Part shown: piece after piece, positions 628-61,510 of the stretch
Numbering within the stretch: the stretch's first letter is position 1
Layout of the letters: each line of letters begins with the position of its first letter
Assembly (NCBI RefSeq): GCF_004010195.1
Contig: NC_057757.1
Location: forward strand, 2,050,985 to 2,114,984
Reading direction: 5' to 3'
Source: Chiloscyllium plagiosum
Lineage: Eukaryota
Length of the DNA stretch: 64,000 nucleotides
Notes under the pieces: model-generated
What the model was told of the DNA's origin: nothing
What the model saw: only the letters and a program-made list of their open reading frames with translations
The model's database searches: none
Position numbers and translations under genes: made by a program

Positions 628-1610
628 AATGTGGAAGTGGGAGGTCATCCATTTTGCTAGGAATAACACAAAATGGACTATTATTTCAATGGTGAAAAAT
701 TGGGGAAGGTTGCTGCGCAGAGGGACCTTGGCATCCATGTGAATGAATCACAGAAGGTTAGTTTGGAGGTGTAGCAGGTAATTAAGAAGGCAAATGGAAT
801 GGTGTCCTTCATTGCTACAGGGATTTCAAAACAGGAAGGTTATACTGCAGCTGTATAGGGTGCTAGTGAGGCCACGTCTGGAGTACTGTGTACAGTTTTG
901 GTCTCCTTACTTGAAGAAAGTGAGGACTGCAGATGCTGGAGACCAGAGTTCAAAAGTGTGGTGCTGGAAAAGCGCAGCAGGCCAGGCGGCATCCGAGGAG
1001 CAGGAGAATTGATGTTTCGGGCATAAGCCCTTCTTCAGGAGTGAGGTTGGTGTGCCAAGCGGGCTGAGATAAAAGGTGGGGGTGGGGGGGAGGAATTTAG
1101 TACTGGAGGGAGTGCAGGGGAGGTTCACTCGATTGATTCCGGAGTTGAGAGGGTTGGCTCATGAGGAGGGATTGAACAGACTGGGACTATACTCATTGGA
1201 ATTTAGAACAATGAGAGAGGGATCTTATAGAAACACATAAAATTATGAAGGGAATTGACAAAATAGAAGTTTGGAAGTTGTTTACACTGGCGGGTGAAAC
1301 TAGAACTGGGGGCATAGCCTCAAATAAAGGGGGAGCAGATTTAGGACTGAGTAGAGGAGGAATTTCTTCACCCAAAAGGTTGTGAATCGGTGGAATTCCC
1401 CTGCCCAGTGAGGCAGTTGAGACTACCCCAGTGAATATTTTTAAGGCACAGACAGATTTTTGAACAGTAAAGGAATTAAGGGTTAGGGTGAACAGGTTAG
1501 GGTGAGTGGAGCTAAGTCCATGAAAAGATAAGCCATGATCTTATTGAATGGTGGAGCAGGCTGGTGGGGCCAGATGGCCTACTCCTGCTCCTATTTCTGA
1601 TGTTCTTATG
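628..1610 (+). mobile_element. CR1 LINE 3' fragment
   Basis: [20 protein letters not shown] and RRNFFTQ motifs. Confidence 0.85.
918..1090 (-). mobile_element. Short PLE-type repeat inserted into a CR1 copy
   Basis: Same family as the copies near 10140, 17350-17790, 25945, 40770 and 45760; hammerhead-like CTGAAGA...GAAA at 1011-1038 on the minus strand. Confidence 0.65.
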
Positions 1611-2609: not shown

Positions 2610-4810
2610 AGAGATGTACAGCATAGAAACAGACCCTTCACTTCAACTTTTCCATGCCAACTAGGTATCCTAAATTTATCTAGTCCCATTGCCAGCATTT
2701 GGCCCATATCCCTCCAAATCCTCCTGTTCATATACCCAACCAGATGCCTTCTAAATTTTTTTATCATTAGATTAGATTTTCTACAGTGTGGAAACAGGCT
2801 CTTCAGCCCAACAAATCCACACTGACCCTCCGAAGAGTAACCCACACAGACCCTTTTCCCTCTGACTAATGCACCTAACACTATAGGCAATTGAGCACGG
2901 CCAATTCACTTGACCTATACATCTTTGGACTGTGGGAGGAAACGCAGACACATGGAGAATGTGCAAACTCTACAGGAATTGAACCTAGGCGCTGTGAGGT
3001 AACAGTGCTAACCACTGAGCCACCTGCCTCTACCACTTCCTCTGGCAGCTCATTCCACACATACACCACCTTCCGCATGAAAATGTTACACCTTAGGTCC
3101 CTTTTAAATTTTTCCCCTCTCACCATAAACCTAGACTCTATAGTTTTGGACTCCTCTACCCTGGGAAAAAGACCTTGTTTGTTTACACTATTCATGACCC
3201 CTCATGATTTTATAAACCTCTATAAGGTCACACCTCAACCTCCAACAGTCCAGAGAAAATAGCCCCAGCCAATTCAGCCTCTCCTTAAAACTCAAAACAT
3301 TTTCTCTCTGCCTACTCTTCTGACTCAGCGAGAATGGTGCTCAACGACACACCCGAGATAAAAGAGTGGGAGGAACAAGAGGAAAGTTGCATGATTTATT
3401 TTGAGCAGTTGTCATCTGGCTATTCATGAAAACTTAATAAACATGCTGTGCACATGGGACTGAATCACAAGATTCTGGATTTGAATCTCACCCTGCATCA
3501 TTGGAGACACGGTATCTCAGAACATGTGACAACAATAAATCAAACACAATAAACTGAAACTACTGTCTTTCAGATGAGATGTAAAACCGAAAGCCCAGTT
3601 CCAGGGGGTTTAAAAAATCTCATTGTTCCTTTTGGAAAACTAAGAAAACCTAGGGGAGTGGGAACCAGTCACCCTCTCAAAAGAATTTGGGAAAAAACAG
3701 AAATCGCAGGAGAAACTCAGCAGATCTGGCAGCATCTGTGGAGAGAGAGTAACAGAGTTAACATTTTGAGTCCAGTGACCTTTACAGTATCACACAGCAC
3801 TGAAGCATACCTTTCAGCTCAACTCAACCACGCTGACCAGCATTTGGCCCATAGCCCTCGAAACCCTCCCTATTCATATACCCATCTCAATGCCTTTTAA
3901 ATGTTGTAATTGTACCAGCCTCCACCACTTCGTCTGACAGCTCATTCCATACACACACCACTCTCTGCATGAAAAAGATCCCCCTCAGGTCCCTTTTAAA
4001 TCTTTCCCCTCTCACCTTAAACCTATGCCCATTAATTTTGGATTCCCCCACCCAAGGAAAAACACCCTGGCTATTCACCCCACCCATGCCTGTCATGATT
4101 TTATAAACCTCTACAAGGTCACCCTTCAGTCCATGACACTAACCCATCCAGTCTTTTCCTGCAGCTCAAAACACTCATGCTATTAGATTTAGATTAGATT
4201 CCCTACAGTGTGGAAACACGCCCTTCAGCCCAACAAGTCCACACCGACCCTCCGAACCGCAACCCACCCAGACCCATTCCCCTACATTCACCCCTAATTA
4301 ATCCACCTAACACCAAGGGCAATTTAGCACAGCCAATTCACCTGACCTGCACATCTTTGGACTGTGGGAGGAAACTGAAGCACTCAGAGGAAAGCCACAC
4401 AGACACGGGGAGAACGTGCAAACTCCACACAGACAGTTGCCCGAGGTGGGAATTGAACCCGGGTCCCTGGCGCTATGAGGCAGCAGTAGCCGCCCCTCCA
4501 GTCCCAGTAACATCCTTATAAATCTTTACTGCACCCTCTCAAGTTTAACATCTCTCCTATAGAAGGAAGACTAAAATTGTATGCAGTATTCCAAACGGGG
4601 CCTCACCAAGGTCCTATACAACTGCAACATGATACCCTAACTCCTATACTCCATGTTATGACCAATGAAGGCTAGTATACCAAATCCCTTTTTCACCAGC
4701 CCGTCTACCTGCGACTCCACTTCTAAGAAACCATGCTCCTGTACCGCTAGGTCTCTTTGTTGGCAAAATTCCCCAGGGTCCTACTATTAACTGTAGATGC
4801 CCTGCCCTGA
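2610..4810 (-). mobile_element. Two CR1 3' fragments (about 2610-3295 and 3785-4810), each interrupted by a SINE
   Basis: GLFPRVEESK/FKVRGERFKRDLRG/WNELPEEVVEAG motifs; SINEs at about 2765-3022 and 4183-4490. Confidence 0.85.
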
Positions 4811-5259
4811 TGTTCTTCAGGACTGGGACACTGGGATTGAAACTTATAAATCTGCTTTCTCTCCACAAATGCTTCTGGCCGGGTGAGTTTCTCCAGCAAT
4901 ATCTTCAGCACCCCGCAGTTTTCGGTTTTGTTTCGGAAATGGACTGGGATCTTGCTGTATGGGGATCTTCACCGATTGTGGAAGTGCTGTGAGATATGCA
5001 ATGTTCTGCTGTAGAGACGTGAAACTCGCCAAGATATAATGGAAGGATAGAATCCCTAGACGTAGGGAAGGAGGCTGTTTGGTCCATCGAATCCAATAAC
5101 ATTAACCATCCGTAGAGCATCCCTCCACCCAACCCCATCCAGGTGCATGGCCAATTCACCAAGACTGGTGAAAACCCACAGTACCCCGGAGGCTGGAACC
5201 GAACCCATAACCCTGGCGTTGTAAAGCACAGCCGCTAACCACTGAACCAACGAGTCCAC

Positions 5260-5782
5260 AAACGGTGGCCCTGAGACTTTGAGAGATCAGGGAACGTCGA
5301 CCAATGACGTCATTACGCACGCCAACCTCCCTGCCCCGACCCCGCCTCCTTTTTGCAACGGCAGCACGGGGCGCGCCTCCTACCGCCCGTGGAACCTTAC
5401 CTGTCAGGGCGTGTGACGTCACCACGCGCCGCCGCGCACATCGCTGCGGGGCTGCGCACCGGACCGGCGCGCGTTGGCGTGGGGTCAGCTGCCCTCCGCA
5501 GGAATGTGCCGGAACAGCAGGATGGAAACTTAGCAACCGTGCGGCGGCGCCAGCCAGCTTCTCGTCGACCCCCCCGCTCCCCCCCACCAGCAACCAACGA
5601 GACCAGCCCCCCCCCCCACCACCCGTCATATATCGCATTAATAAGCCTCGAAAACAACATGGACGAACATCGGAGCGACACGACGGTTTGATTCCCCGAA
5701 GGACTCATACGGGCGGGGAGCCCCAGCCTCCCCCTCTCCTCTCCGTCGAGGCGCTCCTCCCCCGCCGGCTGAAAATTGGTGC
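5260..5782. promoter_or_regulatory. CpG-island promoter of an unidentified gene
   Basis: CpG-dense and GC-rich. CCAAT at 5301-5305, full CRE TGACGTCA at 5305-5312 and 5414-5421, GC box, RFX-like half site TAGCAAC near 5531; minus-strand donor CAG|gtaagg at 5401. Abuts the assembly gap. Confidence 0.75.
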
Positions 5783-7440: not shown

Positions 7441-7898
7441 ATATAGCGAATTTTGAGAAGATTTGTAGCTCAGGTTGAGGTTCTGGATGTAGGTTTGCTG
7501 ACTGAGCTGGAAGGTCCATCTCCAGACGCTTTGCCACCCCACTAGGTAACATCTCCAGTGGGCCCCAGGCAAAGCAGTGCACATGACCCCCGCCTTCCAC
7601 CTACATGCCTGGGATGTCACCTACCGCCCCCCCCCCCATCAGGGGGTGGCAAATGGGGCCCAACCCGATGCGTTCGTCGACAGAGCCCTGGCTGGAATGC
7701 CACGCTTCCAGGAATTCTCATGCGTGTCTCTGTTTGGCTTGTCCTAAGATTGATGTGATGTCCCAGTCGAAGTGGTGTCCTTCCTTATCTGTATGTAAGG
7801 ATACTAGTGAGAGAGGGTCATGTCGTTATGTGGCTAGTTGGTGTTCATGTATCCTGGTGGCTAGTTTTCTGCCTGTTGTCCAATATAGTGTTTGTGTA
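7441..7898 (-). mobile_element. Penelope-like element 3' fragment (degenerate GIY-YIG)
   Basis: Reverse strand reads KHYIGQ/TGRKLATRIHEHQLAT*RHDPLSLVSLH...HHFDW; terminal sequence homologous to the right end of the 61.5 kb element. Confidence 0.8.
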
Positions 7899-8938: not shown

Positions 8939-10309
8939 AAGTTGGCACTGAGCTGCAGATGTGGGTTGCTGCTGGTAAAATGTTGCCTCCTGTTCGGTGA
9001 GTCCAGAATTCAAAAATAAGCGGATGCCACTCAGGTCGAGATGAGGAGAAAAGATTTAACTCAGATGGGCTGTGAATGTTTAGAGTTCTCACCCACAGAG
9101 AGGGCTGTGAACGCGCAGTCTAAGGATGGATCACGTAAGGGTTCACTGCATTATTGCTGTTTCTCAGTGGGATGTTAAACTGAGGCCCCATCACATCTCA
9201 GTCAGGGACACAATCGAATTGCTGACCCTATTGTGGGGGTCAAGTCCTGGGCCAAAGTCGACCACCAAATAAGTAGGCGATCTCTTGACTATGGCACCTG
9301 CAACGTGAATTAGCTGCCCAGTTTCCTACCTGAAATGGGAACCAAAAGTAATCCAATGGCCAAAAAGCAGCCAAGATTGTCCTGAGGTTGTTAAAGGCAC
9401 TACAGAAATTCAAGCCCTTTCTTTGCTTCGTGAAGAAGTTTCTCGAGATCGCTTTTGTAAATGGCTCCCCTTATCACCACACTTTAATTCCTGTCAATTC
9501 GCCTTTAGCGAGTCAACCTACACCAGGCAACGTTCTCTATCAATACCCTGCCCTCACCTTAGACTGAACATAAAGGGACCCCTTAAAATAAAAATGGCTT
9601 GTTCTTTCATTCTGGAATGTTCCAGTCAGAAGCTAATCCTACCCGTTCCCAGAAGCCAAGGGTAAACCACCAAACGTCCAACTCTCATCGCCTCCCCCAA
9701 TACCCCCAACCGCAATGCGACTTCAGTTTAACATCTCACCTTTAAGTGGTACTTCTGACAGTATGGCATTCCCTCAGTACTGCAGCAGGAATGTCAGCCT
9801 GCACTTTACGCTCGCATCCCCGTGTGTGGGGGTTTTGTGGGATTGACCTCAACAGCAGATCCAGGTTCACAGGAATTCTCCCCAGGTCACCAAGTAGGTG
9901 CAATATTCATGTTTTGGCTTTGCCTGGAATGCTGTCTTGGGTAACAGAATGATGCCAAAAGTGTGGGTTCAATCCCTGCACTGGCTGATGTTCCATGACA
10001 GACTCTCTTTCTGCAGTCTCTACCTGGGTGACCCTCAGGTTACACCCCCACTGGTTACCTCTGTCTAATGAGGTAGCACTATGGTGACCTAATGGTAGGG
10101 TCCTGGGGAGTGTTACTGGACAAACGACCTTAGGGCAGGAAAATCGACGTTTCGGGCAAATGCCCTTTATCTGAAACGTCGATTTTTGCCTGAAACATCG
10201 ACTCTCCTGCTCTTCGGATGCTGCCTGACCTGCTGTGCTTTTCCAGCACCACTCTAATCTCGAGTCTAATCTCCAGCATGTGCAGTACCCACTTCTGCCC
10301 AAAGAGACC

Positions 10310-12869: not shown

Positions 12870-13590
12870 AAGTGGGTGGTTATGAGGGTGTTTGGCAAGC
12901 TTCCCTTCATCGCTCAGCCCTTTGAGTACAGGACTTGGGACGTCATGCTGAGGTTGTACAGGACATTGGTGAGGCCTGTTCTGGAGCACTGTGTCCAGTT
13001 CTGGTCACCCTGTTATAGAAAGGACATTATTAAACTGGAGAGGGTTCAGAAGAGATTTACCAGCAAGTCCAGTTCTAAGGGAGCGTCACTGGACCAGAAA
13101 CATTAACTCTGCCATGCCTGCTGACTTTTTCCACCAATATCTTCTTTTGTTTCTGATTTACAGCATCCGCAGTTCTTTCAGTTTTTATTTACCAAGATGT
13201 TGCCAGGGAAGGGAGGGCTTGAGATAATAAAAAATAAACTGGGAAAGCTGGGACTTTTCTCACTGGTGTGTAGGAGGTTACAGAGGTTTACAAAATCACA
13301 TGGGGGGCATAGATAAGGTGAATGGCAGGTGTCTTTTCCCGAGGCTGGAGAATTTCAAGTCAAGGCATTTATTTAAGGTGAGAGGAGAAAGACTTAAAAA
13401 GGACACTAGGGGTAAATATTTTACACAGTGAGTGGTTCGTGTGTGGATGTGGGTTCAGTTACAACTTTTAAAAGACATCTGGATAAGTCCATGAATAGGA
13501 AAGGTTTGGGCCAGGAGGGACTAGTTTAGTTTGGGATTATGGTTGGCATCGACTGGTTGGACCGAAGGGTCTGTGTGACTCAATGACTCT
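12870..13590 (+). mobile_element. CR1 3' fragment interrupted by a short repeat (about 13065-13190)
   Basis: LYRTLVRPVLEHCVQFWSP...LERVQKRFT; CR1 resumes at accaagatgttgcc. Confidence 0.8.
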
Positions 13591-15427: not shown

Positions 15428-17348
15428 GCGGTCAGCCAGGTTCCTCTGTCACTGTGCCTCAGGAAGCCCCCCAAAACCCTGTTGGACGGGGACGTCAGGA
15501 AGTTGGGGGTGGGGGAGAGATCTGTCCGAGTGATCCCACCCTGAGAAAGATAGCGAACCATTGGCTGAAAACCGTTCTCTGTAAGTGACATCTTCATATT
15601 GGCAGATTGCTGGGTTTTTATTGAGATGTGGAGGGAAGGAGGGATTGAGGATTACAGAATGTAGGCAGGGAGTGAATCTACGCGGAACCAATGCTTCTCC
15701 AAGTGAATGTTCCTGGGCCACAAACCACCTTCGAGCTTATCCAAAAGGCTGGAAGATGGGAGACTGAGCCAGGTGCAGTGGAAAATGAACAAAAGCCGAA
15801 TGGTTGGTTGAGGCCGGGGCAAAGTTTGGATGGGCTGTTCAGCCCATTGTGGCTGTGCTGTCCCATTACCTGCTTCCCCGTTTCCTCCCCCTCCCCCAAC
15901 TGCAACCCTGAAAATTATTCCCCTTCAGATGATGTATTGTGGAGGAAAGAGCTGTTTAGTTACAACATTTCATCAAGATAGTCACAAGAATACCAAAGTA
16001 AAGGGGAGCAACAGTCAGCAAATGGATTTTGATTGGCAGAGGCAGTGCCACAGAGAATACATTGACTGATGATGATCGACAGTCAACTGCCACACTTCAA
16101 ACCAGGTTTCTCAAGTCGCTATTTAATCTGCTTCCACTGCTCTTTTTGATCAGAAAACTCAATGAGTCCAAATCTTTTCCCCTTTTTCTTCATTGCTGAA
16201 TATCATAAGTCTGCATCCCTCTGGTTACTGACCCTCCAGCCATTGGTCACATTTCCTCCTTGTTCACTCAACCCTCAGTGAGATTTCAGCGCCTCAAATA
16301 AATCTGCCCCTTAATCTACTTTGCTGCAAGGGTGCTGGCAGGTGGGACTAGATTGAGTTGGGATATCTGGTCGGCATGGACGGGTTGGCTGTACATCTCT
16401 ATGACTCAATGAGAGAAATCCCAGCCTCTCCAGGTAACTTAACTGAAGTCTTGCTTCCCTGAAACCATTCTGGTAAATCTCTTTCCAAGGCCTTAGGTAT
16501 TCTTCTGAAAGTCCAATGTCCAGAATTGGCTCTGTAGAGAGTATATTTGATACGAAGCTGGACCTATCATTGAGCCTGACACTGGGGTTATGAACAGTAG
16601 CTGGAAGTGAAGGAGAGGATGGATAGAGTCAGTGACTTGAGAGCAGGGCTTGTGGAAGGGGGTGGGGAGCCTCAAGACCTCTTCCCAGCCATTCCTTGAA
16701 GAGCCATTCTAGCTTAAAATGACTAATCCGATGGCTCTGGGGGGAGGGGGTGGTTATGTCATGGGGTAGGGTGGATCTCCTTTGGAGTTTAAAGTGATCT
16801 TACTTGGGAACTTAAAAGAGCAGGGATAAGTGCCAGCCAAGTTGGAGAATTGTCATTCCTTGTTACGTTGTACATAATTTTACCAAAGTGTAAGTTCTTC
16901 CAGTGAAAATCCCTAATGAGAGGGACAACTCCAGGAGGATCAAGCTACAGCAGGCTGCATTTTTTTTAAATGCACTTGTGGGATTTGGCATTGCTGGCTG
17001 GGCCCAGCATTTATTGCCCCTCCCTATTTGCCCCTTGTGAAAGGGGGAGGGGGGTGGTTGAGCTGTCTTCTTGAACCGCTGCAGTCCACCTGCTGTGGGT
17101 TGATCCACAATGCCCTTAGGTGGGAAATTCCAGGATTCTGACCCAGCGACACTGAAGGAACGGCCGGTATTTATCCAAGTCAGGATGGTGAGTGGCTTGG
17201 AGGGGAACTTGAAGATGGTAGTGTGCCCATGTATCTGCTACCCTTGTTCTTCTAGATGTCCTTATGACTGTGACCCCCTGGGTTCTGGACAACACCTACC
17301 CCCTCCCCGGGTCATCAGGAACATTCTTACTGCTTTTACCCTGTCTCG

Positions 17349-17787
17349 AATCTGGTTTCCAGCATCTGCAGTCCTTGTTTTTACCTCGTTGATTTTAACG
17401 CTACTGCGAATCCTCTTACAAGGATGCCTGCCTTGAAGAAGTTTTCCTCCTCTCTCTACAAGAATCTCAGGGAGTCTCTCTCTCACTGCAACTCCCAGGT
17501 CATCTCCTCTGCCCCGAAGCTCTTACCAGTCCTACCTGCCTATCTTCCTTTCCACCTATCCACTCCACCCTCCTCTCTGCCCTACCACCTTCATCCCCCA
17601 CCCCATTCACCTATTGTACTCCACGCTATTTTCTCCCCACCCCGACCCCCACCCCCCTCTCATTTACCTCTCCACCCTGCAGGCTCCCTGCCTCTATTCC
17701 TGATGAAGGGCTTTTGCCCGAAACGTCAATTTTCCTGCTCCTCGGATGCTGCCTGACCTGCTGTGCTTTTCCAGCACCACTCTAATC
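17349..17787 (+). mobile_element. PLE-type repeat (longer copy with duplicated terminal segment)
   Basis: Contains the family signature ctcggatgctgcctgacctgctgtgcttttccagcaccac and the hammerhead core. Confidence 0.65.
17700..17727 (+). ncRNA. Minimal hammerhead ribozyme core in a PLE-derived repeat
   Basis: CTGATGA-A-GGGC-TTTT-GCCC-GAAA-CG-TC: intact core boxes, 4-bp stem II, GUC triplet. Activity is untested. Confidence 0.65.
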
Positions 17788-18654
17788 ACCACCCTATATG
17801 CCAGATCGACATATATACTGTGATTGATATATGGTAAACACTGGCTGGGGACACAAGTGAGGAAGCGGCCTGGATTCTGTATTGCAATATGGACCTGACT
17901 ACAACCTGCACTGATCAGCTTTCAATAAAACACTTGTTTCAGGCAGAGAAGAGCTAACAGACTTGATGGTGAAAACAGCTGGCCTTTAGCTGCTTGCTCA
18001 ACACATTTCGATTCCGAGCTGTTTGCTCAGGAGCGGAAAACAGGACGAGGGTACGCTTGTTCCAGAGATAATTGTTGAGTGGAGAACAGATTACAGGGAG
18101 TGTGTCACTGTTAACTGAAGCCATTAGGGAGCATCTGTCAACAGTTAAGTAGAACAACATTAGCCAATTATTCTATCCAAGGCAGGGCCAGAAATAGCTG
18201 GGCTCCAGTGAGCACATTAAAGAGCATGTTAAAAGCATGAAAGGGTCATTGAGTGCAAGTCACTTGCTCCACCTCCCACTCCTATCCCTCTTCCTGCTCT
18301 TCGACTACTGAAACCCTCATCCATGCTCCAGATTCTTCTAGTCCAATGCACTTCTGTCCAGTATCTGAAATTCAGATCATCCAATGCTGCCCCATGTCCC
18401 CACTCACATTAAAACCTTTCCCCAACCCCTTTCTCCCTCTCTGTAACCTCTTCCAGCACCTGCAACCTCCGAGATCTCTGCAACCTACTCCAGTTCCAGC
18501 CTCTTGCCTCTCTCCTGCTTCACGACACTCCTTAAATATTTCTTTAAACTGAGCTGTTAATGGTCTGTGACACTGATGGCCGCTTCTGTCAATTGCCTGA
18601 GGTGGTGCTATTTAAATGCAGCTGAACAGTTCTCTGAGGACTGTAGTAATTTAT

Positions 18655-19200
18655 AGAATCCCTACAGTGTGGAAGGAGGTCATTTGGCCCATTGATTCTG
18701 CACTGACCCTCCAAAGAGCATCCTACTGAGACCCATGTCCCTTCTCCAGCCCTGTAACCCTGCATTTCCCTGCATACTAGCATAAGTGGATATGCTAATC
18801 CACATATCCTACATCCCTGGACAGTATAGGACAATTTAGCACGGCCAATCCACCCCAATCTGCACATCCCTGGACAGTATAGGACAATTTAGCTCGGCCA
18901 ATCCACCCTAACCTGCACATCCCTGGACACTATGGGACAATTTAGCACGGCCAATCCACCCTAACCTGCACATCTGTGGACACTATGGGACAATTTAGCA
19001 CGACCAATCCACCCTAACCTGCACATCTCTGGGCACTATGGGACAATTTAGCATGGCCAATCCACTCTAACCTGCACAGCCTTGGACTGTGGCTGGAAGC
19101 CAGAGCACCCAGAGGAAACCCACACAGTCACCCATAGCTGGAATCGAACCTGGGTCCCTGGTGCTGAGAGGCTGCAGTACTAACTACTGAGCCACCATGC
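18655..19200 (-). mobile_element. HE1-type SINE with an internal tandem amplification (about 5 copies of 53-54 bp)
   Basis: Repeated ggacactatgggacaatttagcacggccaatccaccctaacctgcacatc at 18810-19090; A/B boxes at the right end. Confidence 0.8.
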
Positions 19201-20981: not shown

Positions 20982-23900
20982 TTTATTGCCTCCCCGAACA
21001 TTTTATTTGCTCCCTCTTTTCAACAACGTGGTGGTAACAGTTAACATGTGGAAAACAGCAACTTAAAAAAATATATATCTAAATATATACAAAAAAAAAT
21101 AAAATGATTAATATGGGAATACTGACTGAGCTGTGGCCCTCATTGTCACAGCTAGGCCTGTGTTACAAGCAGCCTATATAATACGGCCTTCACAAATAGG
21201 CTCAGAGCTGCAGGCCTTGTCTGGAACCATGTGGGAGGCACAGCGAGGGGAACGGGAGTCTGTTGGGACCAGACCGGGGGGGGCTGTTGGGAACTCCAGA
21301 AACACAAATCCCCAGAGTATTTCATCCTCCCCCAACCGGCCCTTATCAATCTCAACTGATACTTCCTGCATTTTCAAAACTGATAGAACCCATTAAACAC
21401 TGAATGTTGGCCTAAGGGTTGAGGAAGGGATGGGGGTGTTAGACGTGTAAAAGTAGGGAAGTTCATTACAGTTGAGGGTGTCATTGGTCAAACCACATCT
21501 TGAGAATTATACACGGTTGGACTTTCTTGCTTACAGAAAGACAGGCCTCCACTACCACAGGGGGCTGCAGAAGCTGGCTCACTGAGTATTTTCAAGGCTG
21601 AGATGGGCAGATTTTTAATCAGCAAGGGAATCGGGGGGGGACAGCGATAAGTCAAGAAAATGGGAGTTGAGGATGATCAGATAAGCCGTGATCTCACTGA
21701 ATGGCAGAGCGGACTCAAACTCCTACAGCATGGAAACAGACCCTTCACCCAACCAGTCCGTGCCGACCATAATCCCAAACTAAACTAGTCCCACCTGCCT
21801 GCTCCTGGCCCATATCCCTCCAAACATATCTAAATGCCCTTTAAATGTTGTAACTGTACCCACATCCATCACTTCCTCAGGAAGTTCATTCCACACGCGA
21901 ACCACTCAGTGTAGGGAAAAGTTGCCCCTCATGTCTTTTTAAAATCTCCTTCACCTCACCTTAAAAATATGCCCCCTAGTCTTGAAATCCCCCCCACTCT
22001 AGGGAAAAGACACCTGCCATTCACCTTATCTGTACCCCTCATGATTTTATAAACCTCTATAAGGTCACCCCTCAGCCTCCTACGTACCAATGTACAAAGC
22101 CCCAGCCTTTCCTTAGAACTCAAAGCCTCCATTCTCAGCAGCAACCTGGTAAATCTCTTCTGAGCCTCCTCCAGCTTTCCTCCCCATATCCTCCCCATAA
22201 CAGGGTCACCAGAACTGCACACTGTACTCCAGAAGAGGCCTCATTGATGTCCTGTACAACCCCAACACAACTCAAGGGGCAGAATGGCCTCCTTCTTCTC
22301 CCATCCCTGTGGGTCATTGAAAGCAGCTTGGAGATGGTTCACTCGAGTGATTCCTGCAAAGCCACGATTGCCTGATGGAGGAGAGACTGAGTAGGTTTGG
22401 ATGCGTACTCATTTGGGGTCTAGAAGAATGAGAGGCCCCAAGATTTTGAGGGGGATTGACCGGCTGGACGCAGAGATGCTTTCTCCCCTTGCGCAGCGAT
22501 CTAGAATTGGAGTGGAGGGGCACAGTTTCAAAACGTAGGGTCCCCTTTTTAAGGTGATGAGGAGAATCCTTTTCTCTCAAAGTGTCATCCTTTGGAATTC
22601 TTTCCCCCAGAGAGCAATGGGCACCAGGACATGGAGTAAAGTTAAGGGCGAGATAGAATTTAATTAGTAACGGGGTTATGGGGAACAGGCAGGAAGGCGA
22701 GTTGAGGCTGAGGTGACTGTATTGAAAGGGGGGGGGCAGGCTCAAGGGCTGAACGGCCTGCCCCTTGCTCCTAATTCTGATGTGCCTGACTCTGAAATGC
22801 CCTCTGCGATGGCCCAGGAAGTCATTCCGTGGCAGTTGGGGGTGGGCAACAAAGGAGTAAAGGGAAAAGCCGTACAGGGAATGGGGAGAATATGAACAGA
22901 ACAAAAAGCTGGAAAATACTCTCCAGGTCATGGAGAAGCCGCGTTAATGTTTCAGCTTGAGTGACTTTATCTCCTAAAGTTTGGATTCTGCATCAAGTCA
23001 GACCTGTTACGGAGTTATTCCAGCTTTTATATCAGTCTTATTTCAGATCTGCCCCCTTCCTCAGCATTTCGGAGTCACTGAGATGTACAGCACAGAAACA
23101 GACCCTTCAGTTCAACTCATCCATGCTGGCCAGATATCCTAAATTAATCTAGTCCCAGTTTGCAGCATTTGGCCCATACCCCTCTAAACCCTTCCTATTC
23201 ATTTACCCATCCATATGCCTCTTAAATGTTGTAATTGTACCAGCCTCCACCACTTCCTCTGGCAACTCATTCCATACACGCACCACCTCTGCATGAAAAA
23301 GTTGCCTCTTAGGTCCCTTTTAAATCTTTTCCCTCTCACCTTAAACTCTTCGCCCTATCCACGCCCCTCATTATTTTATAAACCTCGATAAGGTCACCCC
23401 TCAGCCTCCGATGCTCCAGGGAAAACAGCCCCAGCCTGTTCAGCCTCTCCCTATAGCTCAAACCCTCCAACCCTGGCAACATCCTTGTAAATCTTTTCTG
23501 AACCCTTTCAGGTTTCACAAGTTGGTGCAGACACGGTGGGTGTTACTACTGTAACAATTCTGTAACCATCACCTCTACACTAACCAGAAAACGTCGAGTG
23601 TCCTGTACAGGTTAAGCCTACATTTATCAAGTAGCCTGGTCATGGCCTTCTCAAAACCGGTGTGTAATCTCACCTCTGTTTAGCAGGCAAGTCTAAGACA
23701 GACATAAAAGGAGTAGATTCACCCCAAACCCCTGTGTTCACTGACCAATTTGGACCATTTAAAACTCACATCGCTGCTTCCAAACGCTTCCTGCGTCTCA
23801 CCTCCTCCCCGTCTCGGTAATCTTCTCCAGGCCCACAGCCATTTGAGATCTCAGCTCTCCTCTAATTCTGCCGTGATATGTATTGCTCTGATTTCCATCT

Positions 23901-24971: not shown

Positions 24972-25680
24972 TCATAGAATCAGAGAGATGTACAGCATGG
25001 AAACAGACCCTTTGGTCCAACACGTCCATGCTGACCAGATATCCTAATTAATTTAGTCCCATTTTCCAGCACTTGGCCCATATTCCTCTAAATGCTTCCT
25101 ATTCATACACCTATCCAGATGCCTTTTAAATGCTGTAATTGTACCAGCCTCCACCACTTCCTCTGGCAGCTCATTCCATACACGTACCACCCTCTGTGTG
25201 AAAAAGTTGCCCCTTAGGCCCCTTTTATATCTTTCCCCTCTCACCCTAAACCTATGCCCTCTAGCTTTGGACTCCCCGACCCTGGGGAAAATTCCTTGTC
25301 TATTCACCCTATCCATGCCCCTCATGATTTTATAACACTCTATAAGGTCACCCTTCAGCCTGTGACGCTCCAGGGAAAACAGCTCCAGCCTATTCAGCCT
25401 CTCCCTGTAGCTCAAATCCTGTAATCCTGGCAACATCCTTGCCAATCTTTTTTGAACCCTTTCAAGAAGCACAACACCCTTCCTCCAACAGAGAGACCAG
25501 AATTGCACGCAGTATTCCAAAAGTCGCCAATTAGTGTCCTGTATAGCCACAACATGACCTCCCAACTCCTGTACTCAGTGTTCTGACCAATAAAGGCAAG
25601 CGTACCAAACACCTTCTTCACTGCCCTGTCTACCTGTGACTCCACGTTCAAGGAATGATGATCCTGCATCCCAAGGTCTC
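24972..25680 (-). mobile_element. CR1 3' fragment
   Basis: ORF 25053..25565 is a typical CR1 ORF2 C-terminus. Confidence 0.9.
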
Positions 25681-26756
25681 CTTCAGACCGGATCCAGCTA
25701 CACGGCTGGTGCTTTCAAACAACGGGAGCAGGCAAAGAAATTCTTCTGCTTTATCACCTTTCATCACCTCCGGGTGTACCACAGCACTTTTAATGTCAAC
25801 TGAAAGTGTGGCAGACAGCAAGCCGGGGGCTGAGGGGCGAGCTGATCGAAGTACATAAAATTATGAGGTGTACAGATAGGAAGGATAGTCTTTCCCCCAG
25901 TTTGGAAATGTCAAACATTCGGGGGCACAGGTGAGAGGGGTCGAAAAGTGTGGCGCTGGAAAAACACAGCAGGTCGGGCAGCATCCAAGGAGCAGGAGAG
26001 TCGATGTTTCAGGCATAAGCCCTTCATCGGGAATGTGGCTTTAAGGTGAGAGGGGGCCATTTTAAAGGAGTTGTGCGAGGTAAGTTTTTTTTTAAACACA
26101 GAGGATGGTAGTTGCATGGAATGCACTGCCAGGGGAGGTGGTCAAAGCAGAAATGGAGGCATTTAGACAGACACATGAACAGGCAGAGAATAGAGGGAAA
26201 TCAATCATGAGCAGGGAAATGGTCGGCACAGACATGATGGGCCGAAGGGCCTGTTCCTGTGATGTACCGTTCTATGTTCTACATAAACCCAGATCAGTTG
26301 CCTACAGTGGCATTGACTCAGAAGTAAATATTGGCCTCAGGACCCTGTGTGGAATTTTCTCTGTATGACAACCATAACCCCCCCACTCCAGTGTCTCCAT
26401 TTACAGCCCCCTTCAGTGTGCAGTGCACTAGGGACTTCAGCTTAACATGGCAGCCAAAAGAAGGCATCTCTGACAACGCAGGGCTCCCTCAGGCCTGTTC
26501 AGAGAGTGTCAGATTGCTCCTTAATCCTCTGGACTGCTGGAAGGTGTCAGCTCAGTGAAGGCACTGTTGACTGTGCAGCTCCAGACAGAGCTCTCCCTCT
26601 GGACTGCAGCCTTGTGGTCCAGAGAAGGGAAGCTAATCAACTCTGCCAAGAAAACGGAACGGCATACATACAGGAAGAGAGAAGCCTTCTGAAAGGAGGT
26701 AGTGCAGGCAGCCATTGGAACTCGCTACATGCTTGGAATGATCGCATAGCAGAGTA

Positions 26757-28269: not shown

Positions 28270-28875
28270 TTATAGAGTCGTACAGTACAGAAACAGACCC
28301 TTTGGTGCAACTAGTTCATGCCGTCCAGATATCCTAACCTAATCTAGTCCCATTTGCCAGCACTTGGCCCATATCCCTCGAAAGGCTTCCTATTCATACA
28401 CCCATCTAATGCCTTTTAAATGGTGTCATTGTACCAGTCTCCACCACTTCCTCTGGCAGCTCATGCCATACACGCACCACCCTTTGCATGAAAAGAGTTG
28501 CCCCTCATTTTAAAATCTTTCCCCTCTCATCTTAAACCTCTGCCCTATAGCTTTGGACTCCCCTACCCTGTGGGAAAGATCTTGTCTATTTACCCTATCC
28601 ATGCCCCTCGTGATTTTATAAACCTCTATAAGGTCACCCCTCAGCCTCCGATGCTCCAGGGAAAACAACCCCAGTCTATTCAGCCTCTCCCTATAGATCA
28701 AACCCTCCAACCATGGCAACATCCTTGTAAATCTTTTCTGAACCCTTTCAAGTTTCACAACATTAAAAATCACACGACACCAGGTTATAGTCCAACAGGT
28801 TTAATTGGAAGCACTAGCTTACACAGCATTGCTCCCTTCACAACATCTTTCCTACTGCAAGGAGACCAGAACTGA
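28270..28875 (-). mobile_element. CR1 3' fragment with a small PLE-type insertion
   Basis: LERVQKRFTRML...; insertion flanked by two copies of ttcacaacat. Confidence 0.85.
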
Positions 28876-30609
28876 GTTTTTATGAATTACTGCTTCAGAC
28901 TCAGTTGGAGGACTGGATCCAATTCATCAAGGCTTTGGAAACGCTGCAAAACAGACTTACGAGAAAAGGTCCCAGGAGATGAGGAGAGACTGGAGTGGTC
29001 AAGATTATTTTCTTTAGAAATGTTGAAATATGCTTAACTATAATGGCACTGGCAGAATAAAGGAGGGGAATCGGTTTCCACTGACAATGGGCCAAAACCG
29101 AAAGCGATATCGATTGTAGATGCCAGCTAAAGGATCTGGTGATGTTCAAGCCATTGCGATCTGGAATGCACTGCCTCAGAGGGAGCAGATTCAAGAGGAA
29201 CTTTCAAAAAGGGAAGTTGAGGAAACATTTGAAAGGGGGGGATGGGGTGGGGAAGAAAATTGCACGGCAGTGCAGAAAGAGCAGGGAGGGAAGTGTGATT
29301 TATTAGCAAGCTCTTCAAAAGGGCCAGTACAGACACAATGAGCCAGGTCACCTTCTGTTCTGATTTTTGAGTTCAAGACTGTGACCCCCTGCAGTGGGGC
29401 AAAGGGCCCACTGTTGAACCCAGTCTTCAGACCATTGGGGAGCAAGGCATGGGAGGGGAAGGGGCAGGGGGAATGATGATGATGTTTATGCAGTGAATCA
29501 GCAGAATCCCTGCCAGCAGCTGGACAAATAAAAACAAGGACACATCCCAAAGGCCAGTTCCACGCACACACTGAACAAAAAGTCTGGGAATCACGCCAAA
29601 TGGCTGCACTGATACAGGGGGAACATAGGGGAATGTACAATTTTTCACATTTTAGGCCTTTCGCAGGCTCACTATCCCAGAGCGGGTTAGTTTTTGGAGG
29701 CGTCATAAAACCCTGCGAGCACGAGAGGACATAGCTTTAAATTGAGAGGTGATAGATACAGGATAGGTGTCAGAGATAGGTTCTTTACTCAGACAGTCGT
29801 AGCGGCGTTGAACGCATTGCTTGCAACAGTAGTAGTGTCGCCAAATTTAAATGGGTTGGCACACAGAGTCGTAGAGATATACAGCACAGAAACAGACCCT
29901 TCGGTCCAACCCGTCCATGCCAACCAGACATCCCAACCCAATCTGGTCCCACCTGCCAGCACCCGGAAGATGGACTTCAGATTGGGTTCCACAGGTCGGC
30001 GCAACAGAGGGCCGAAGGACCTGTACTGCCCCGGAATGTTCTACGTTCTAATTTGTACACAGTAAGTTCCCACAAGGAGCACTGTGCCAGTGGCATGTTA
30101 CAGCCGTCTGGGCTCAATACTAAGTTCAACACCTTCAGGTTGTGAACCCACTCCCATTCCTTCCCTTTTTATTTTAGCTTTACTGTTTGCATTCTCTGTC
30201 AACACGTCCTCTCTCCGCTCCCTTCCCTACTCCAGTTGGACTGTGTCTGTCCTTCCCAGTCTGGCAGTTAGACACATCATTCTTCTGCCATTCTCACATT
30301 CCAGGTCCTTCATTTGCAATAATCAGCACCCCTTCTCCCCCAGCACTCCACCATCACACCCCTCACTAAGCGCAAGTGCTGTCCCCTCCACACTTCCCTT
30401 CAGCTCTGATAAAGAGTCACCTCGACTTGAAACATTAGCTTGCTCTCTCTCCACGGATGCTGCCTGACCCGCTATGATCTCCAGCATTCGTTGTTTTCAG
30501 TGACTGGGACTCCAGACAATTAGGGATGGGCAATAGATGCTGGGCCTAGCCAAAGACAATCACATCCAACTGGTGTGGGTCTGGAGTCACATGTAGGCCA
30601 GACCAGGTC

Positions 30610-35734: not shown

Positions 35735-35971
35735 CTGAGGGAGAGAAAAATCACTTCTGTTATGGAACTCACAGAGTACAGGAAAGAAAAGAAGATTTCC
35801 ATAGCATCTTTTCCAACCTCAGCAAGTATCAAGCCAATCAGGGACTTTCAGAGGCGGAATCACTTTTTTACTGTTAAAACCAGCAGTGACTCTGTACACA
35901 GCCTCCGGGGAGCAGCTCACTTTCAGTGAAAGAACGAGTTGGAGGAGCCGGTGTAGGACTGGGGTGTACAA

Positions 35972-36162
35972 AGTTAAGAATCACACAACACCAGGTTATA
36001 GTCCAACAGGTTTATTTGGAAGCACTAACTTTCGGAGCGCTGCTCCTCCATCAGGTGGTTGTTAATGACTGACAACTACCTGATGAAGGTGCAATGCTCT
36101 GAAAGTTAGTGCTTCCGAATAAACCTGTTGGACTATAACCTGGTGTTGTGTGATTCTTAACT
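35972..36162. mobile_element. ~190-bp palindromic PLE-derived element with a hammerhead-like core in each arm
   Basis: Arms 35972-36062 and 36072-36162 are near-perfect reverse complements; CTGATGA at 36080 and GAAA at 36101. Confidence 0.75.
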
Positions 36163-36293
36163 CGGTGAAGGAAGGTAATGGGCCCAGGGGATCAGAAAAC
36201 CTCTATGTTTTTCATCAAATTGCTGGATATCTTACACTCAGCCAAGATAACACAGATTGTCTGATCTTCAACATCTCGTTTAAAGATGGTTTG

Positions 36294-36822: not shown

Positions 36823-36908
36823 AGCCACATCCATCCTGGAAGCTTGTGCCTGTGTGAGTTTGGAACGCTGAACAAACTTGCTCCTGAGCAACAATCGGCC
36901 GCACTCAC

Positions 36909-40254: not shown

Positions 40255-40768
40255 CTGCACCATTAAAAGAAAATAACAAGAGAGAAGGACATCCAGTTAG
40301 TCAGTGGCAATGTTACTGGAATTACAGCTGAGACATTAATCTTCTGGGGACATTTGTTCAAATCCCACATCAACAACTCACAAAACTTGCATTTGACCAA
40401 TCAAATGGGTCAGCACTTAAAAATGACAGGACATATGTACCAAGTGCAGGTGAATGGGATTGGCATCAGTTGGTGAGCGGTACAGACATGGTGAGGCACA
40501 TGCTAAGTCTGGAACAGAAATCTCTCCTCAGTGACGAGAAACCAGGCGTTGTAAAAGTCCATCTGGGGGGGTCACTAAAGCACGCAAGGGAACAAAATCT
40601 GCCATCCTTGCCCGCTCTGGCCTACACATGACTCCAGACCCACGGCAATGGGGTTGATTCTTAACTGCCCTCTGAAATGGTGGCACGGTGGCTCACTGGT
40701 TAGCACTGCTGCCTCACGGCGCCAGGGACGCGGGTTCGATTCCAGCCTCGGACGACCATCTCAGTGTC

Positions 40769-40968
40769 AAGACTGGAGTGGTGCTGGAAAAGCACAGCAG
40801 GCCAGGCAGCATCCGAGGAGCAGGAAAATCGATGTTTCGGGCAGGAGCCCTTCATCAGGAATCATCCTGATTCCTGCTCCTCAGATGCTGCCTGGCCTGC
40901 TGCGCTTTTCCAGCACCACTCCAATCTTGAGTCTGATCTCCAACATCTGCAGTCCTCACTTTCGCCTA
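40769..40968. mobile_element. Fold-back PLE-type short repeat inserted in a SINE
   Basis: Inverted arms gtggtgctggaaaagcacagcagg... / ...cctgctgcgcttttccagcaccac; interrupts the SINE at 40680-41130. Confidence 0.7.
40831..40858 (-). ncRNA. Minimal hammerhead ribozyme core
   Basis: Reverse strand reads CTGATGA-A-GGGC-TCCT-GCCC-GAAA-CA-TC. Confidence 0.55.
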
Positions 40969-45754: not shown

Positions 45755-45972
45755 GATTAGAGAGGTGCTGGAAAAGCGCAGCAGGTTAGGCAGCATCCGA
45801 GGAGCAGGAAAATCAATGTTTCAGGCAAAAGCTCCTCATCAGGAATGGATGAAGGGCTTTTGCCCGAAATGTTGATTTTCTTGCTCCTCAGATGCTGCCT
45901 GATCTGCTGTGCTTTTCCAGCACCACTCTAATCTTGACTCTGGTTTCCAGCATCTGCAGTCCTTGTTTTTAC
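45755..45972. mobile_element. Fold-back PLE-type short repeat
   Basis: Inverted arms meet at about 45845; CTGATGA on the minus strand at 45836-45842 and a truncated core on the plus strand. Confidence 0.7.
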
Positions 45973-47452
45973 TTTCTGGAACAATATGTTTAACCAAGGC
46001 AGTCTGTCTGCTCAGTGTCTCCCTCTCACGAACTGAAATCCATGGGTGGTGGCTAACACCCCTCCTTCAATCAATCACATCCAAAACAGATCATTTACCA
46101 TCCCTGACATCTTGCCTAACAGAGTTGTGAGTGCATGGAATGTGTTGCCAGCTGAGGTGGTGGAAGCAAAGTCATTGGGGACATTTAAACAACTGCAGGA
46201 CATGTACATGGATGGCAATGAGTTGAGGGGTGCGTAGGTTATTACTCTATTTTACATTAGGATTAAGTCTCAGCACAACATCGTGGGCCTAAGAAAAGTA
46301 CAGCACAGAACGGGCCTTATGTTCTAAGCAGTGACTGGGCTTTCGAAATCACTTTAGGATGTGGTAAGAGCCTATTTCAAGTGCAGCCTTTCCCATACTC
46401 CTGAAGGATGAGAGGGGTGACAAAAGAAAAAAATAGGTTAAGAATGGAGTTATAGAATATGGCGGCGTATGAGTTAAAAGGTGGCTAGCAGAAATAGTGG
46501 TGCAGAGGGAATTAGGTGTAATCTGGTAGCAGGGTGCAAGAACAGGAGGACATTTATTTATCAGGAATAAGAGGAGCCTATTCCATCTGTTGTACAGAGG
46601 ACAACAAACTGATTTATTCTGGCAAAGAAATCAGTAGCTTGCTTTTTGTATCAGTGCACAGTGGTATCACTGACTAGAGAAGCCAGCCTGCCGTTTCCAA
46701 GAGCCTGAGATCTTTGTGTTGTTACAACTCTGGCCTCCTGCATCTTCTTTCTCCCTTCACAACTGACGTTATAAGAAGGACCTAAATACGTTCCCTCCCT
46801 AAACTTCTCCCCTCCCTTGAGAAGCTCCTTAAAACCTATCTCTTCAATGAAGTCTGTCCTAACATCTCACTTTGTTGTAGCATGAATTTCATTTGACAAC
46901 TGGTCCAATGGGATGGTTAGATTGGTTCAAGATGCTACATTGATGTAACTTGTTGTTGGCTGAAATCCTGCAGTTGCACTCACCCTTACTGGCCATGAGA
47001 TGGCATCTCATACACACTGCAGGGATGGCTTCAGGGAGCTGCTGGATGAAATTGAATTTGACAGTCCCAGTTCTGTGGCTGACAGTGATTTTACAGGATA
47101 GTTCTGTGCACGGGTGCTTTCAAAACAATGTTTAATTCATTGCTCATCACTAGTCACCCTGATAACTGACCGGTATTGCATTGATGTAGCAACATATTCC
47201 AAGAAAATACTGGTGACTGAAAGCTGGTCTCGAATATGAGTAACTTGCAGGGTCGCCAACAAAGGTGGAGTGTAGAGAAGCACTGCTCCCTCACACAGAA
47301 CCAGCACAGGCACAGCGGGTCGATTGGTCTCATTTGGCACTATATGTTCCCACAAAGGGGAGCAGACAGAATTCTCCAGCAAAACGCAGTCGGTAAAGGG
47401 AAATACAAATGAGCAAAGAAGAACCCATGCTAACTTTGATCTGCAATTTTTT

Positions 47453-57772: not shown

Positions 57773-58297
57773 CTGCAAGCAGAACATTCAAACAAACTCT
57801 ACAGCCCAATTGGCAATGGCAGTTACCTCTACTGGTTGACATGCTATACATCCTCTGAGTATCAGATATATTCCACTGTCCCTTGATTACCTCCCACCTT
57901 CCATCACTTCAAATTCATCCAAAACCCTTACTCCTAATGCATTCGGTTCCATTCATTCATCACCGCAGTTCTCGACCCCTCTGATATCTTCACACTCCTA
58001 CAACTCTGGGCTCTTGCACATCGTGATATCTTTTCCTTCAGCTAATCTAAATTCTGGAAATTGACTCGCTAAACTGCTCTGCTTCTCTCTTTCACAAGAA
58101 CCCTTCCCTTAAAATGTAGGTTTTAAATTAAGCTTTTGCCCCAATTCTCCTCAATATCATGTTGCCATATTTTGTTATGATATCAATCAAGTGCATCATG
58201 TAACCATAACAGAAAGTGATACCTTTTGAGTGTACGCCACCTCTCATGTGTACCTGGGGGCCACTCTCTCGTAATCAACCAACTGTAAATATTAACA

Positions 58298-58572
58298 CAA
58301 AATCAGAAATTGCTGGAAAAGCTCAGCAGGTCTGGCAGCATCTGCAGAGAGAAATCAGTTAGCACTTTAGGTCAAGTGACCCTTCTTCAGAATCTGTTTT
58401 TATTTAGTATTTAACTCACTGCCGCATCTCTTCCAGGCATGCTAGGTCTGAGGAAGGATCCAAAACGTTAACTCAGATTTCTCTTCACAGATGCTGCCAG
58501 ACCTGCTGAGGTTTTCCAGCAATTTCTGTTTTCGCTTCTGATTCACAGCATCTGCAATTCTTTCGGTTTTTT
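58298..58572. mobile_element. Inverted pair of a second short repeat family (cagaaattgctggaaaagctcagcaggtctggcagcatctg)
   Basis: Arms about 58300-58392 and 58446-58540 with degenerate hammerhead-like boxes; relatives near 3690, 4840, 13070 and 39200. Confidence 0.55.
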
Positions 58573-58831
58573 ATCTTGTAAATATTAGCTATCCCATTAC
58601 ATGAGGAATCACACAGGAATGTGACCCGCAGAGCACACTGAGTCAGCAGCTGGTCACTGGTTATAATCGGGGCTGCTTGTGCCCTCAAACTTCAACTTCA
58701 ACCCTTGCACAGAATTAGAACAGCAACTCAGCAACATCACACACAACTCCATGTCCTAGGATTCCACCTGTTAAAGCTGCTGGATGTACTTGGTGGAGAA
58801 AGTTAGAAGGTTAAAGCCACCTGGGACTTAC

Positions 58832-60110: not shown

Positions 60111-61510
60111 CTGTTGTGGTTCTGTTCGCCGAGCTGGGAATTTGTGTTGCAGACATTTCGTCCCCTGTCTAGGTGACATCCTCAGTGCTTGGGAGCCTCC
60201 TGTGAAGCGCTTCTGTGATATTTCCTCCGGTGTTTATAGTGGTCTGTCCCTGCCGCTTCCGGTTGTCAGTTCCAGCTGTCTGTTGCAGTGGTCGGTATAT
60301 TGGGCCCAGGTCGATGTGCTTATTGATTGAATCTGTGGATGAGAGCCATGCATCTAGGAATTCCCTGTCTGTTCTCTGTTTGGCTTGTCCTATAATAGTA
60401 GTGTTGTCCCAGTCGAATTCATGTTGCTTGTTGTCTGCGTGTGTGACTACTAAGGATAGCTGGTGGTGTTCATGGATGCGGATCGTTAGCTGTCTTCCTG
60501 TTTGTTCTATGTAGTGTTTTGTGCAGTCCTTGCATGGGATTTTGTACACTACATTGGTTTTGCTCATGCTGGATATCGGGTCCATCGTTCTGGTGAGTTG
60601 TTGTCTGAGAGTGGCTGTTGGTTTGTGTGCTGTTATGAGTCCTAGTGGTCGCAGTAGTCTGGCTGTCAGTTCGGAAATGCTCTTGATGTATGGTAGTGTG
60701 GCTAGTCCTTTGGGTTGCGGCATGTCCTCGTTCCGTTGTCTTTCCCTTAGGCATCTGTTCATGAAATTGTATTTGCCAAAAACGGATACCCGCGCAATTT
60801 CATCAACAGATGCAAAGGGAAAGACAACGGAACGAGGACATGCCGCAACCCAAAGGACTAGCCACACTACCATACATCAACAGCATTTCCGAACTGACAG
60901 CCAGACTACTGCGACCACTAGGACTCATAACAGCACATAAACCAACAGCCACTCTCAGACAACAACTCACCAGAACGATGGACCCGATATCCAGCATGAG
61001 GAAAACCAATGTAGTGTACAAAATCCCATGCAAGGACTGCACAAAACACTATATAGAACAAACAGGAAGACAGCTAACGATCCGCATCCATGAACGCCAA
61101 CTAGCTACGAAACGACACGACCAGATAGCCTTAGTAGCCACACACTCAGATGACAAGCAACATGAATTCGACTGGGACAACACTACTATTATAGACAAGC
61201 CAAACAGAGAACAGCCAGGGAATTCCTAGATGCATGGCACTCATCCACAGATTCAATCAATAAGCACATCGACCTGGACCCAATATACCGACCACTGCAA
61301 CAGACAGCTGGAACTGATAACAGGAAGCGGCAGATTCAAGCCACTATAAATGCCAGAGGAAACATCACAGAAGTGCTTCACAGGAGGCTCCCAAACACTG
61401 AGGATGTCACCTAGACAGGGGACGAAACGTCTACAACACAAATTCCCAGCTCGGCGAACAGAACCACAACAACGAGCACCCGAGCTACAAATCTTCTCAC
61501 AAACTTTGAA
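60111..61510. mobile_element. Penelope-like retroelement: inverted (fold-back) pair of 3' fragments with GIY-YIG endonuclease remnant
   Basis: Both arms encode NVVYKIPCKDCTKHYIEQTGRQLTIRIHE on opposite strands. Arms are about 60113-60769 and 60796-61470. Flanking direct repeat caataacattc at 60100-60110 and 61511-61521. Confidence 0.9.
61398..61431 (+). ncRNA. Minimal hammerhead core near the Penelope 3' end (mirror copy at 60152-60185, minus strand)
   Basis: CTGAGGA-T-GTCACCT-AGAC-AGGGGAC-GAAA-CG-TC. The mirror copy has a GCA/TGC stem I. Confidence 0.6.

Follow-up and report, generated by a model that had tools for sequence, protein, structure and literature searches.

A short motif with the core of a hammerhead ribozyme recurs throughout a 64-kb window of shark DNA (the whole stretch that was analysed), and it raises the questions of which kind of element brought it there and whether the present copies could still act on RNA. 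The first-pass annotation had named seven sites with the core motif and five core-mutated ones and had read them as non-autonomous, retrozyme-like derivatives of Penelope-like elements (PLEs). We therefore assessed the recurrence and structure of the motif, the insertions that carry it, and the condition and starting points of the individual copies.

Recurrence and anatomy of the motif

All seven sites named previously contain CUGANGA, one nucleotide, stem II, GAAA, two nucleotides and UH with zero core mismatches (Table 1). A relaxed descriptor, which allows a 1-nt insert and one stem mismatch, requires the first G of helix II and was tuned after the copies had been seen, returned these seven alone with an exact core, versus 0.025 expected from 40 order-3 Markov simulations (maximum 1). 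With one core mismatch it gave 10 hits versus 0.475 expected in the same simulations, while the strict descriptor gave 3 exact hits versus 0.0 and 7 one-mismatch hits versus 0.43 (30 Markov simulations). Without the insert, or with a 2-nt insert, the strict descriptor found nothing in the window; hits arise solely with a 1-nt insert, and exactly one unpaired nucleotide stands between positions 9 and 10.1. The five core-mutated copies all exist as well and were re-anchored at the positions listed as decayed cores in Table 1 (one to three core mismatches each), and two cores beyond the earlier list were found at 36054(-) and 45846(+). The recurrent hammerhead motif in this window is real. The repeats behind the former estimate of about a dozen elements in 64 kb are likewise genuine, while the count has to be corrected to 14 cores belonging to 11 insertions.

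Helix I was left out of the search descriptor. In the 10 copies that have no more than one core mismatch, 17 of the 20 cells for its first two pairs are Watson-Crick, versus 0-8 of 20 in six slid registers. When one representative per family was chosen, the helix I pairs formed in 8/8 cases with their own partner and in 4/24 across families. Across the four families, pair 2.1-1.1 is C-G, U-A, C-G and A-U, and pair 2.2-1.2 is U-A, C-G, A-U and C-G. Helix II pairs also vary by family, and the distinct Watson-Crick pair types number two to three at each of 10.2-10.4 and three at both 2.1 and 2.2. The 10.1-11.1 pair is G-C in six of the 10 copies and G.U in four, its first G being required by the relaxed descriptor and not by the strict one. 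Since MAFFT did not bring the stems of different families into register, pairs were counted by hammerhead numbering. The proposal that stem sequences differ by family while pairing persists was thus borne out, helix I included; of the stems quoted for it, GGAGC/GCTCC comes from 36054(-). Covariation, whose absence had been named beforehand as the refuting outcome, was found between families in both helix I and helix II. Being between families, this covariation points to selection acting on the parent elements rather than on the copies in the window.

The self-complementary stretch at 15.2-16.2 reads ACGU in 17700, 61398 and 10173 (families A and D), and a family-C piece near 28830 has AGCU as its palindrome. 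This anatomy matches the Penelope-type minimal type I hammerhead with a palindromic dimer helix III that had been suggested, and the cut expected after 17727 is correctly placed for the predicted site. The helix III stem and loop-loop contacts of a canonical type I hammerhead are absent from these motifs, and an Rfam search of the window at E<=1 gave no hammerhead hit. Judged by their anatomy, the motifs are minimal hammerheads of the PLE type.

Table 1. Motif-bearing insertions in the window, their parts and their target duplications
Feature	Position	Strand	Details
Family A copy with tail	915..1088	-	perfect core 1038; ACAU for ACGU; helix I closing pair broken
Older family-D-like fragment	7451..7876	-	endonuclease-region remnant 7876-7640; decayed core 7558(-)
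Family A inverted, rearranged pair	10135..10294	.	decayed core 10173(-), 2 mismatches; second arm begins inside helix II
Focal unit, family A	17344..17787	+	444 bp; parts in the next 12 lines
PLE tail, 40 bp, direct orientation at 5' end	17344..17384	+	95% identical to 45932-45972
Family-A PLE ORF, first 34 codons, then internal deletion	17424..17525	+	91% identity to shark protein P0007
Putative pyrimidine-rich 3' untranslated part, family A	17529..17695	+	covered by family contigs and reads
Focal minimal hammerhead	17696..17731	+	closing pair 2.1-1.1 is C.A
Helix I, 5' strand	17696-17699	+
Core	17700-17706	+	perfect core 17700
Extra nucleotide	17707	+
Helix II	17708-17719	+
GAAA	17720-17723	+
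ACGU	17723-17726	+
Helix I, 3' strand	17728-17731	+	predicted cut after 17727
Family-A 3' end to short end point	17732..17787	+	loose ends behind 17780 and 17787
Family A solo insert, 103 bp	25941..26043	-	decayed core 26030(-): U4 to C, ACAU
Target duplication, perfect 12 bp	25929, 26044		around the 103-bp solo insert
Family B copy, approximate bounds	30385..30500	+	decayed core 30406(+): G8 to A, ACAU
Family C head-to-head pair	35935..36163	.	core 36054(-), perfect core 36080(+); tail on one arm; no ORF seen
Family A head-to-head pair	40761..40963	.	perfect core 40858(-); (+) arm begins right after predicted cut site, carries tail
Family A head-to-head pair	45755..45973	.	perfect core 45842(-), core 45846(+); 40-bp tail on one arm
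Target duplication, 15 bp, 1 mismatch	45740, 45974		around the family A pair
Family B head-to-head pair	58295..58576	.	decayed core 58390(-), 3 mismatches; (+) arm without helix II; tail on one arm
Target duplication, 11 bp	58284, 58577		around the family B pair
Family D head-to-head pair of Penelope/Poseidon-type 3' fragments	60112..61509	.	perfect cores 60185(-), 61398(+); 38-bp tail on one arm
Target duplication, 12 bp	60099, 61510		around the family D pair

Insertions and their protein relatives

Head-to-head inverted pairs make up six of the 11 insertions, and five of the six carry a tail (~27-44 bp) on one arm only. Target duplications of 11-15 bp (null p<=0.001) surround four insertions, namely three inverted pairs and one solo piece; in the remaining seven, including the focal unit and the family C pair, none was significant above chance. 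At the inversion centre of the 40761-40963 pair an 8-nt filler (40863-40870) resembles the helix I 5' strand fused to post-cut sequence, as if the folded ribozyme had been skipped. Three Rfam microRNA hits below the gathering score (MIR1023, mir-2756 and mir-577) were rejected, as they are the inverted-arm centres of Penelope pairs at 60696-60867 and 40789-40906. More end pieces of families B and C, beginning inside or after the ribozyme, lie at 3694-3783, 4840-4904, 13109-13186, 28757-28835 and 39199-39287.

In family D, a GIY-YIG-region ORF runs into cores 60185(-) and 61398(+), and the ORF fragments are 83-88% identical to P0001, a Chiloscyllium protein with a reverse transcriptase (RT) match. 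A relative, P0003, matches RVT_1 above the cut-off and GIY-YIG weakly. P0031 (882 aa) carries GIY-YIG above the Pfam cut-off and matches the RT-bearing P0003 with an E of 8e-42 over 727 columns in a 68-protein set. Residues 23-159 of P0007, the shark protein that the focal ORF start matches, align to P0031 (N-terminal match 29% identical), and this shared N-terminus suggests that family A is a PLE. The P0007 N-terminus is common to predicted proteins of other carpet sharks, and a search for longer proteins with its residues 1-165 gave no hit among 131 candidates. Taken together, the protein hits point to a shark as host. P0031 has a C-X4-C-X2-C linker fitting the Neptune pattern CX2-5CxxC, which lies between RT and endonuclease; family A, tied to P0031 by the N-terminus alone, is probably Neptune-type. 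No RT or endonuclease remnant of family A was found in the window by tblastn with P0031, and no Pfam family was matched by either endonuclease-region ORF of the window, by the focal ORF or by six other ORFs. Of a single ORF with RT and C-terminal GIY-YIG the window shows fragments only; the domains are carried by the relatives P0003 (RT, weak GIY-YIG) and P0031 (GIY-YIG). No ORF was found for families B and C in the window. A location in the terminal repeat of a PLE is indicated by ORF remnants for families D and A, by 3'-end similarity to A for family B, and by architecture alone for family C.

Two shark gene models are built on Penelope sequence: P0002, a MAP3K7 isoform model, resembles the family-D endonuclease region over its final 160 residues, and P0008, a 'mucin-2-like' model, matches the family-A ORF start. 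ESM Atlas matches were left unused, being unnamed or HEAT/TOG-type clusters only, with few shared features. A 22-nt family-A pattern had no match in metagenome contigs or in viral contigs.

The focal unit consists of a tail, an ORF start, a deletion, a pyrimidine-rich stretch, the ribozyme and a short end, and from 17669 onward it is 83% identical to 1069-955. The family-A tail normally follows 17787, since joints of 17785-17787 to 17344-17351 occur in X3, X4 and a poly(A) single-cell RNA library of organism A (X21, about 2% of the run read). Of the contig pieces listed from two DNA runs, those that cover the ORF start end at 17504-17524 and none spans the deletion at 17525/17529; loose ends also occur before 17529. 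The listed pieces thus give no sign that the internal deletion is shared by the family. Directly left of the unit stands an unrelated short repeat (17128-17257), with other copies at 49-176 and 62351-62461.

The reading of the copies as retrozyme-like, that is, as non-autonomous elements processed by their ribozymes, possibly through circular RNA, and served in trans by PLE proteins, did not hold up. The focal unit does look like a unit-length permutation (tail first, short end last, 2-nt overlap), as one round of a circle would give, and short pieces greatly outnumber bodies, an excess that a dedicated short non-autonomous family could also yield. A 2026 preprint moreover reports tandem retrozymes derived from pLTRs in one chondrichthyan genome (bioRxiv 10.64898/2026.07.22.740005). 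However, no head-to-tail hammerhead arrays occur in the window, where the nearest same-strand cores are 1795 bp apart and belong to different families, and none of six tandem arrays tested (of 19 tandem-repeat rows) contains a core. Protein-coding remnants are present in families A and D, unlike in retrozymes, whose hammerheads are moreover canonical (PMC7229834) and not of the minimal type seen here. The absence of a listed contig piece bridging the focal deletion also counts against this reading, and a direct-orientation tail on the 5' side is a described PLE variant (PMC8557442, PMC2377424). In their remnants of ORFs, their truncated 5' ends, their inverted arms, their tails on one side and their target duplications, the copies look like ordinary PLE insertions. 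A retrozyme-like origin is very unlikely. Of the tandem arrays themselves, a 53-bp array at 18811-19087 lies inside a dispersed repeat and a 71-bp array at 35271-35590 has a diverged copy 16 kb away (51216-51418); neither array holds a core.

Our results suggest instead, with good confidence, that the motifs sit in 5'-shortened end pieces, often arranged as head-to-head inversions, from four or more families. Two of these families have ties to PLE ORFs. The pieces were likely laid down singly by autonomous PLEs and are likely inert at their present sites. The parent element would carry the hammerhead in its pseudo-LTR, where selection would keep the core and helices. The element protein would nick the target, and reverse transcription would begin 60-100 nt past the ribozyme, at either of two start sites, with most copies ending at the ribozyme or slightly beyond. 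Priming off both target strands would produce the inverted pairs, the one-armed tail and the target duplication, after which the inserted copies would decay neutrally, with CpG sites most affected. While still part of the parent RNA, the motif may have weak cleavage activity, either in a dimer or when assisted by protein.

The insertions lie among other repeats and probable host exons. An exon-like ORF at 55653-56084 (-) contains WD40 repeats (Pfam WD40, E 4e-13) and resembles WRAP53/TCAB1. Further exon-like ORFs of a probable host gene, with no Pfam family above the cut-off, lie at 32271-32714 (-), 36858-37067 (-) and 39784-40296 (-). A GC-rich segment at 5150-5780 with ORFs on both strands adjoins a 500-base N gap and is possibly a promoter CpG island. 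A 33-bp minisatellite forms two arrays of opposite orientation (36298-36822 and 37741-38337), one of which spans an N gap. Fragments of LINE-type 3' ends form a dense family, which we take to be CR1-like (for example 2601-3296, 23070-23520, 24972-25683, 30597-31669 and 42021-42655); one of them contains RT-like sequence at 30740-31669(-).

Condition and starting points of the copies

None of the 14 cores is fully intact when the core, two helix I pairs, helix II and the dimer helix III are considered together. The palindrome of the dimer helix III is changed to ACAU in five of the 14 and is of the wobble type in most others, and helix II contains a mismatch in 45842, 36080, 61398 and 60185. 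Copies 36080 and 60185 would count as intact once a single helix II mismatch and wobble pairing in the dimer helix are tolerated; as both keep the core and two helix I pairs, residual activity is possible. The focal copy retains the core, helix II and ACGU, and its closing pair 2.1-1.1 is a C.A mismatch. The family base at 17728 is G (1666/1891 RNA reads in X21; 82% and 84% of contig depth in X3 and X4), so the A found there breaks the closing helix I pair, and 17700, the copy suggested earlier for a cleavage assay, is one with a broken helix I and is predicted to have little or no activity. With G taken as the family base at 17725 and 17728, 19 differences separate five family-A copies, and transitions at four CpG positions account for 9 of them.

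We also considered that one or more copies had been co-opted to cut or regulate host transcripts. Library X21 contains 3396 reads on the focal stretch, on both strands, and 97% of these reads continue into other sequence. One contig of organism A (record 8) joins the 3' end of the focal insertion to the same flank. However, the portion of X21 that was read (about 2% of the run) has no reads over the unique flank 17800-17900, and all 14 cores are defective. Moreover, inverted arms would pair with each other, and in the minimum-energy fold of the isolated motif a competing hairpin forms in which the two core boxes pair with one another. The minimum-energy homodimer of the focal motif differs from the active fold, a result of little weight because the program does not model the core. 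No pile-up of read ends was seen in X21 at the cut site or elsewhere, which is a weak test with one poly(A) run, and a second RNA run (X22) gave 0 reads on the focal stretch. Within the limits of this weak test, the X21 pattern is what passive read-through would give, and it is in line with the lack of such read ends in Anolis. Co-option of any copy is extremely improbable.

The places where copies begin bear on how the short pieces arose. Compared with 17656-17679, the segment 17704-17727 is covered 27 times as deeply by RNA reads and 42 and 82 times as deeply by contigs, whose summed depth is no measure of copy number. Many pieces have loose ends before 17696-17697 (987+324 contigs in X3, 918 in X4 and 338 reads in X21; flank agreement 0.31-0.44), and 7 of 9 family-A arms begin within about 17687-17732. 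Among the strand-switch joints listed, the best supported connect 17696 to 17729 (27 and 17 contigs, 1 read) or to 17733 (15 and 20 contigs, 9 reads); given the family variants at 17728-17732, these two positions are where the alignment of an arm that begins at the cut site would be expected to start. The segment 17694-17700 fits what we take to be the initiator pattern YYANWYY, with A+1 at 17696; the density of this pattern in the window is 1.1% per position. A downstream-promoter-element match at +28 was dropped as poor.

These observations would fit short pieces that are run-off products of fixed length, transcribed from about helix I in the upstream pseudo-LTR and copied from an RT start 90-130 nt downstream until the enzyme runs off the 5' end of the RNA, some templates having been cut by the ribozyme beforehand, and the internal promoter with an initiator described for D. 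virilis Penelope (PMC2377424) offers a parallel. Several findings weaken this view. A CCTC-like consensus closes the loose letters, so the edge at 17696 can arise from a 1-nt indel that separates the focal copy from the main subfamily, and starts in the window scatter 4-13 nt before the core. No loose-end peak appears at 17728-17729 among the rows listed, nor is there a pile-up of RNA ends, and template skipping between the near-direct repeats that flank the ribozyme could make the same joints, as the filler described above illustrates. The initiator match is post hoc, and for the Anolis element no reads ending at the cut site were found (PMC11167929). We regard the run-off model as unlikely; it would refine deposition by autonomous PLEs and not replace it. 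Bolder, and less likely again, is the proposal that the abundant 90-130-bp pieces are strong-stop-like products of shark Penelope elements, that transcription starts from helix I, that reverse transcription begins internally a short way downstream and runs off the 5' end, and that the recurrent inversion joints between 17696 and the first base past the cut are a fossil record of in vivo cleavage. The starts before helix I and the joints at the predicted cut site may thus record transcription start and cleavage in vivo, or may be alignment artefacts. If true, this would be a genomic record of in vivo hammerhead cleavage, for which we found no precedent in the literature on PLE minimal hammerheads.

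Comparison with known systems

Minimal hammerheads (min-HHR) of low activity have been described in the pseudo-LTRs of metazoan PLEs (Cervera and de la Pena 2014, PMC4209133), and PLE hammerheads are also reviewed in PMC6765202 and PMC6155905. The shark families described here are added to a class that has been in print since 2014. Sharks are not named in the text passages of PMC4209133 consulted or in two of its supplementary files, and our literature search found no shark account of PLE hammerheads or solo pLTRs; these families may well be listed in subscription journals and Repbase/Dfam. The 64 kb hold 14 cores in 11 insertions, a high density, and the copies are decayed, none of which would surprise a specialist. 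PLE hammerheads may cut in vivo, but their in vitro activity is low (PMC4209133) and the Anolis data show no read ends at the cut site (PMC11167929); a copy-rich genome of this kind permits insertion starts to be counted relative to helix I and the cut site.

Animal non-LTR retrozymes are similar to the present copies in being short, in carrying a type I hammerhead and in their relation to PLE ends. They differ in being arranged in tandem, in that every unit has its own hammerhead, in most cases a canonical one, and in being expressed as circles (PMC7229834; bioRxiv 10.64898/2026.07.22.740005).

Closer agreement is found with the min-HHR, which share the core boxes, the one nucleotide between 9 and 10.1, G10.1-C11.1, the loop-less palindromic 15.2-16.2 stretch and a short helix I, and which likewise occur as many families per genome, mostly as single truncated copies and in close opposite-strand pairs (PMC4209133). 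Helix II measures 4-7 bp here versus 7-8 bp in the Schistosoma families (PMC4209133).

Descriptions of PLEs include inverted copies with 5' truncation, tails on one side only, target duplications and derivatives with internal deletions (PMC8557442, PMC3846280, PMC8969392). In the Anolis PLE, two adjacent internal RT starts, extension of both target strands and a protein-assisted ribozyme have been shown (PMC11167929). The start codon follows the tail by ~40 nt in family A and the family D ORF runs into the ribozyme, whereas the Anolis ORF begins in helix II (PMC11167929). Unlike the endonuclease-bearing Penelope/Poseidon and Neptune clades, the window contains no full-length element. It shares with these clades 5' truncation, inverted copies, a 30-40-bp tail and target duplications (PMC8557442, PMC3846280, PMC11167929), together with internally deleted derivatives and two 3' end points about 40 nt apart.
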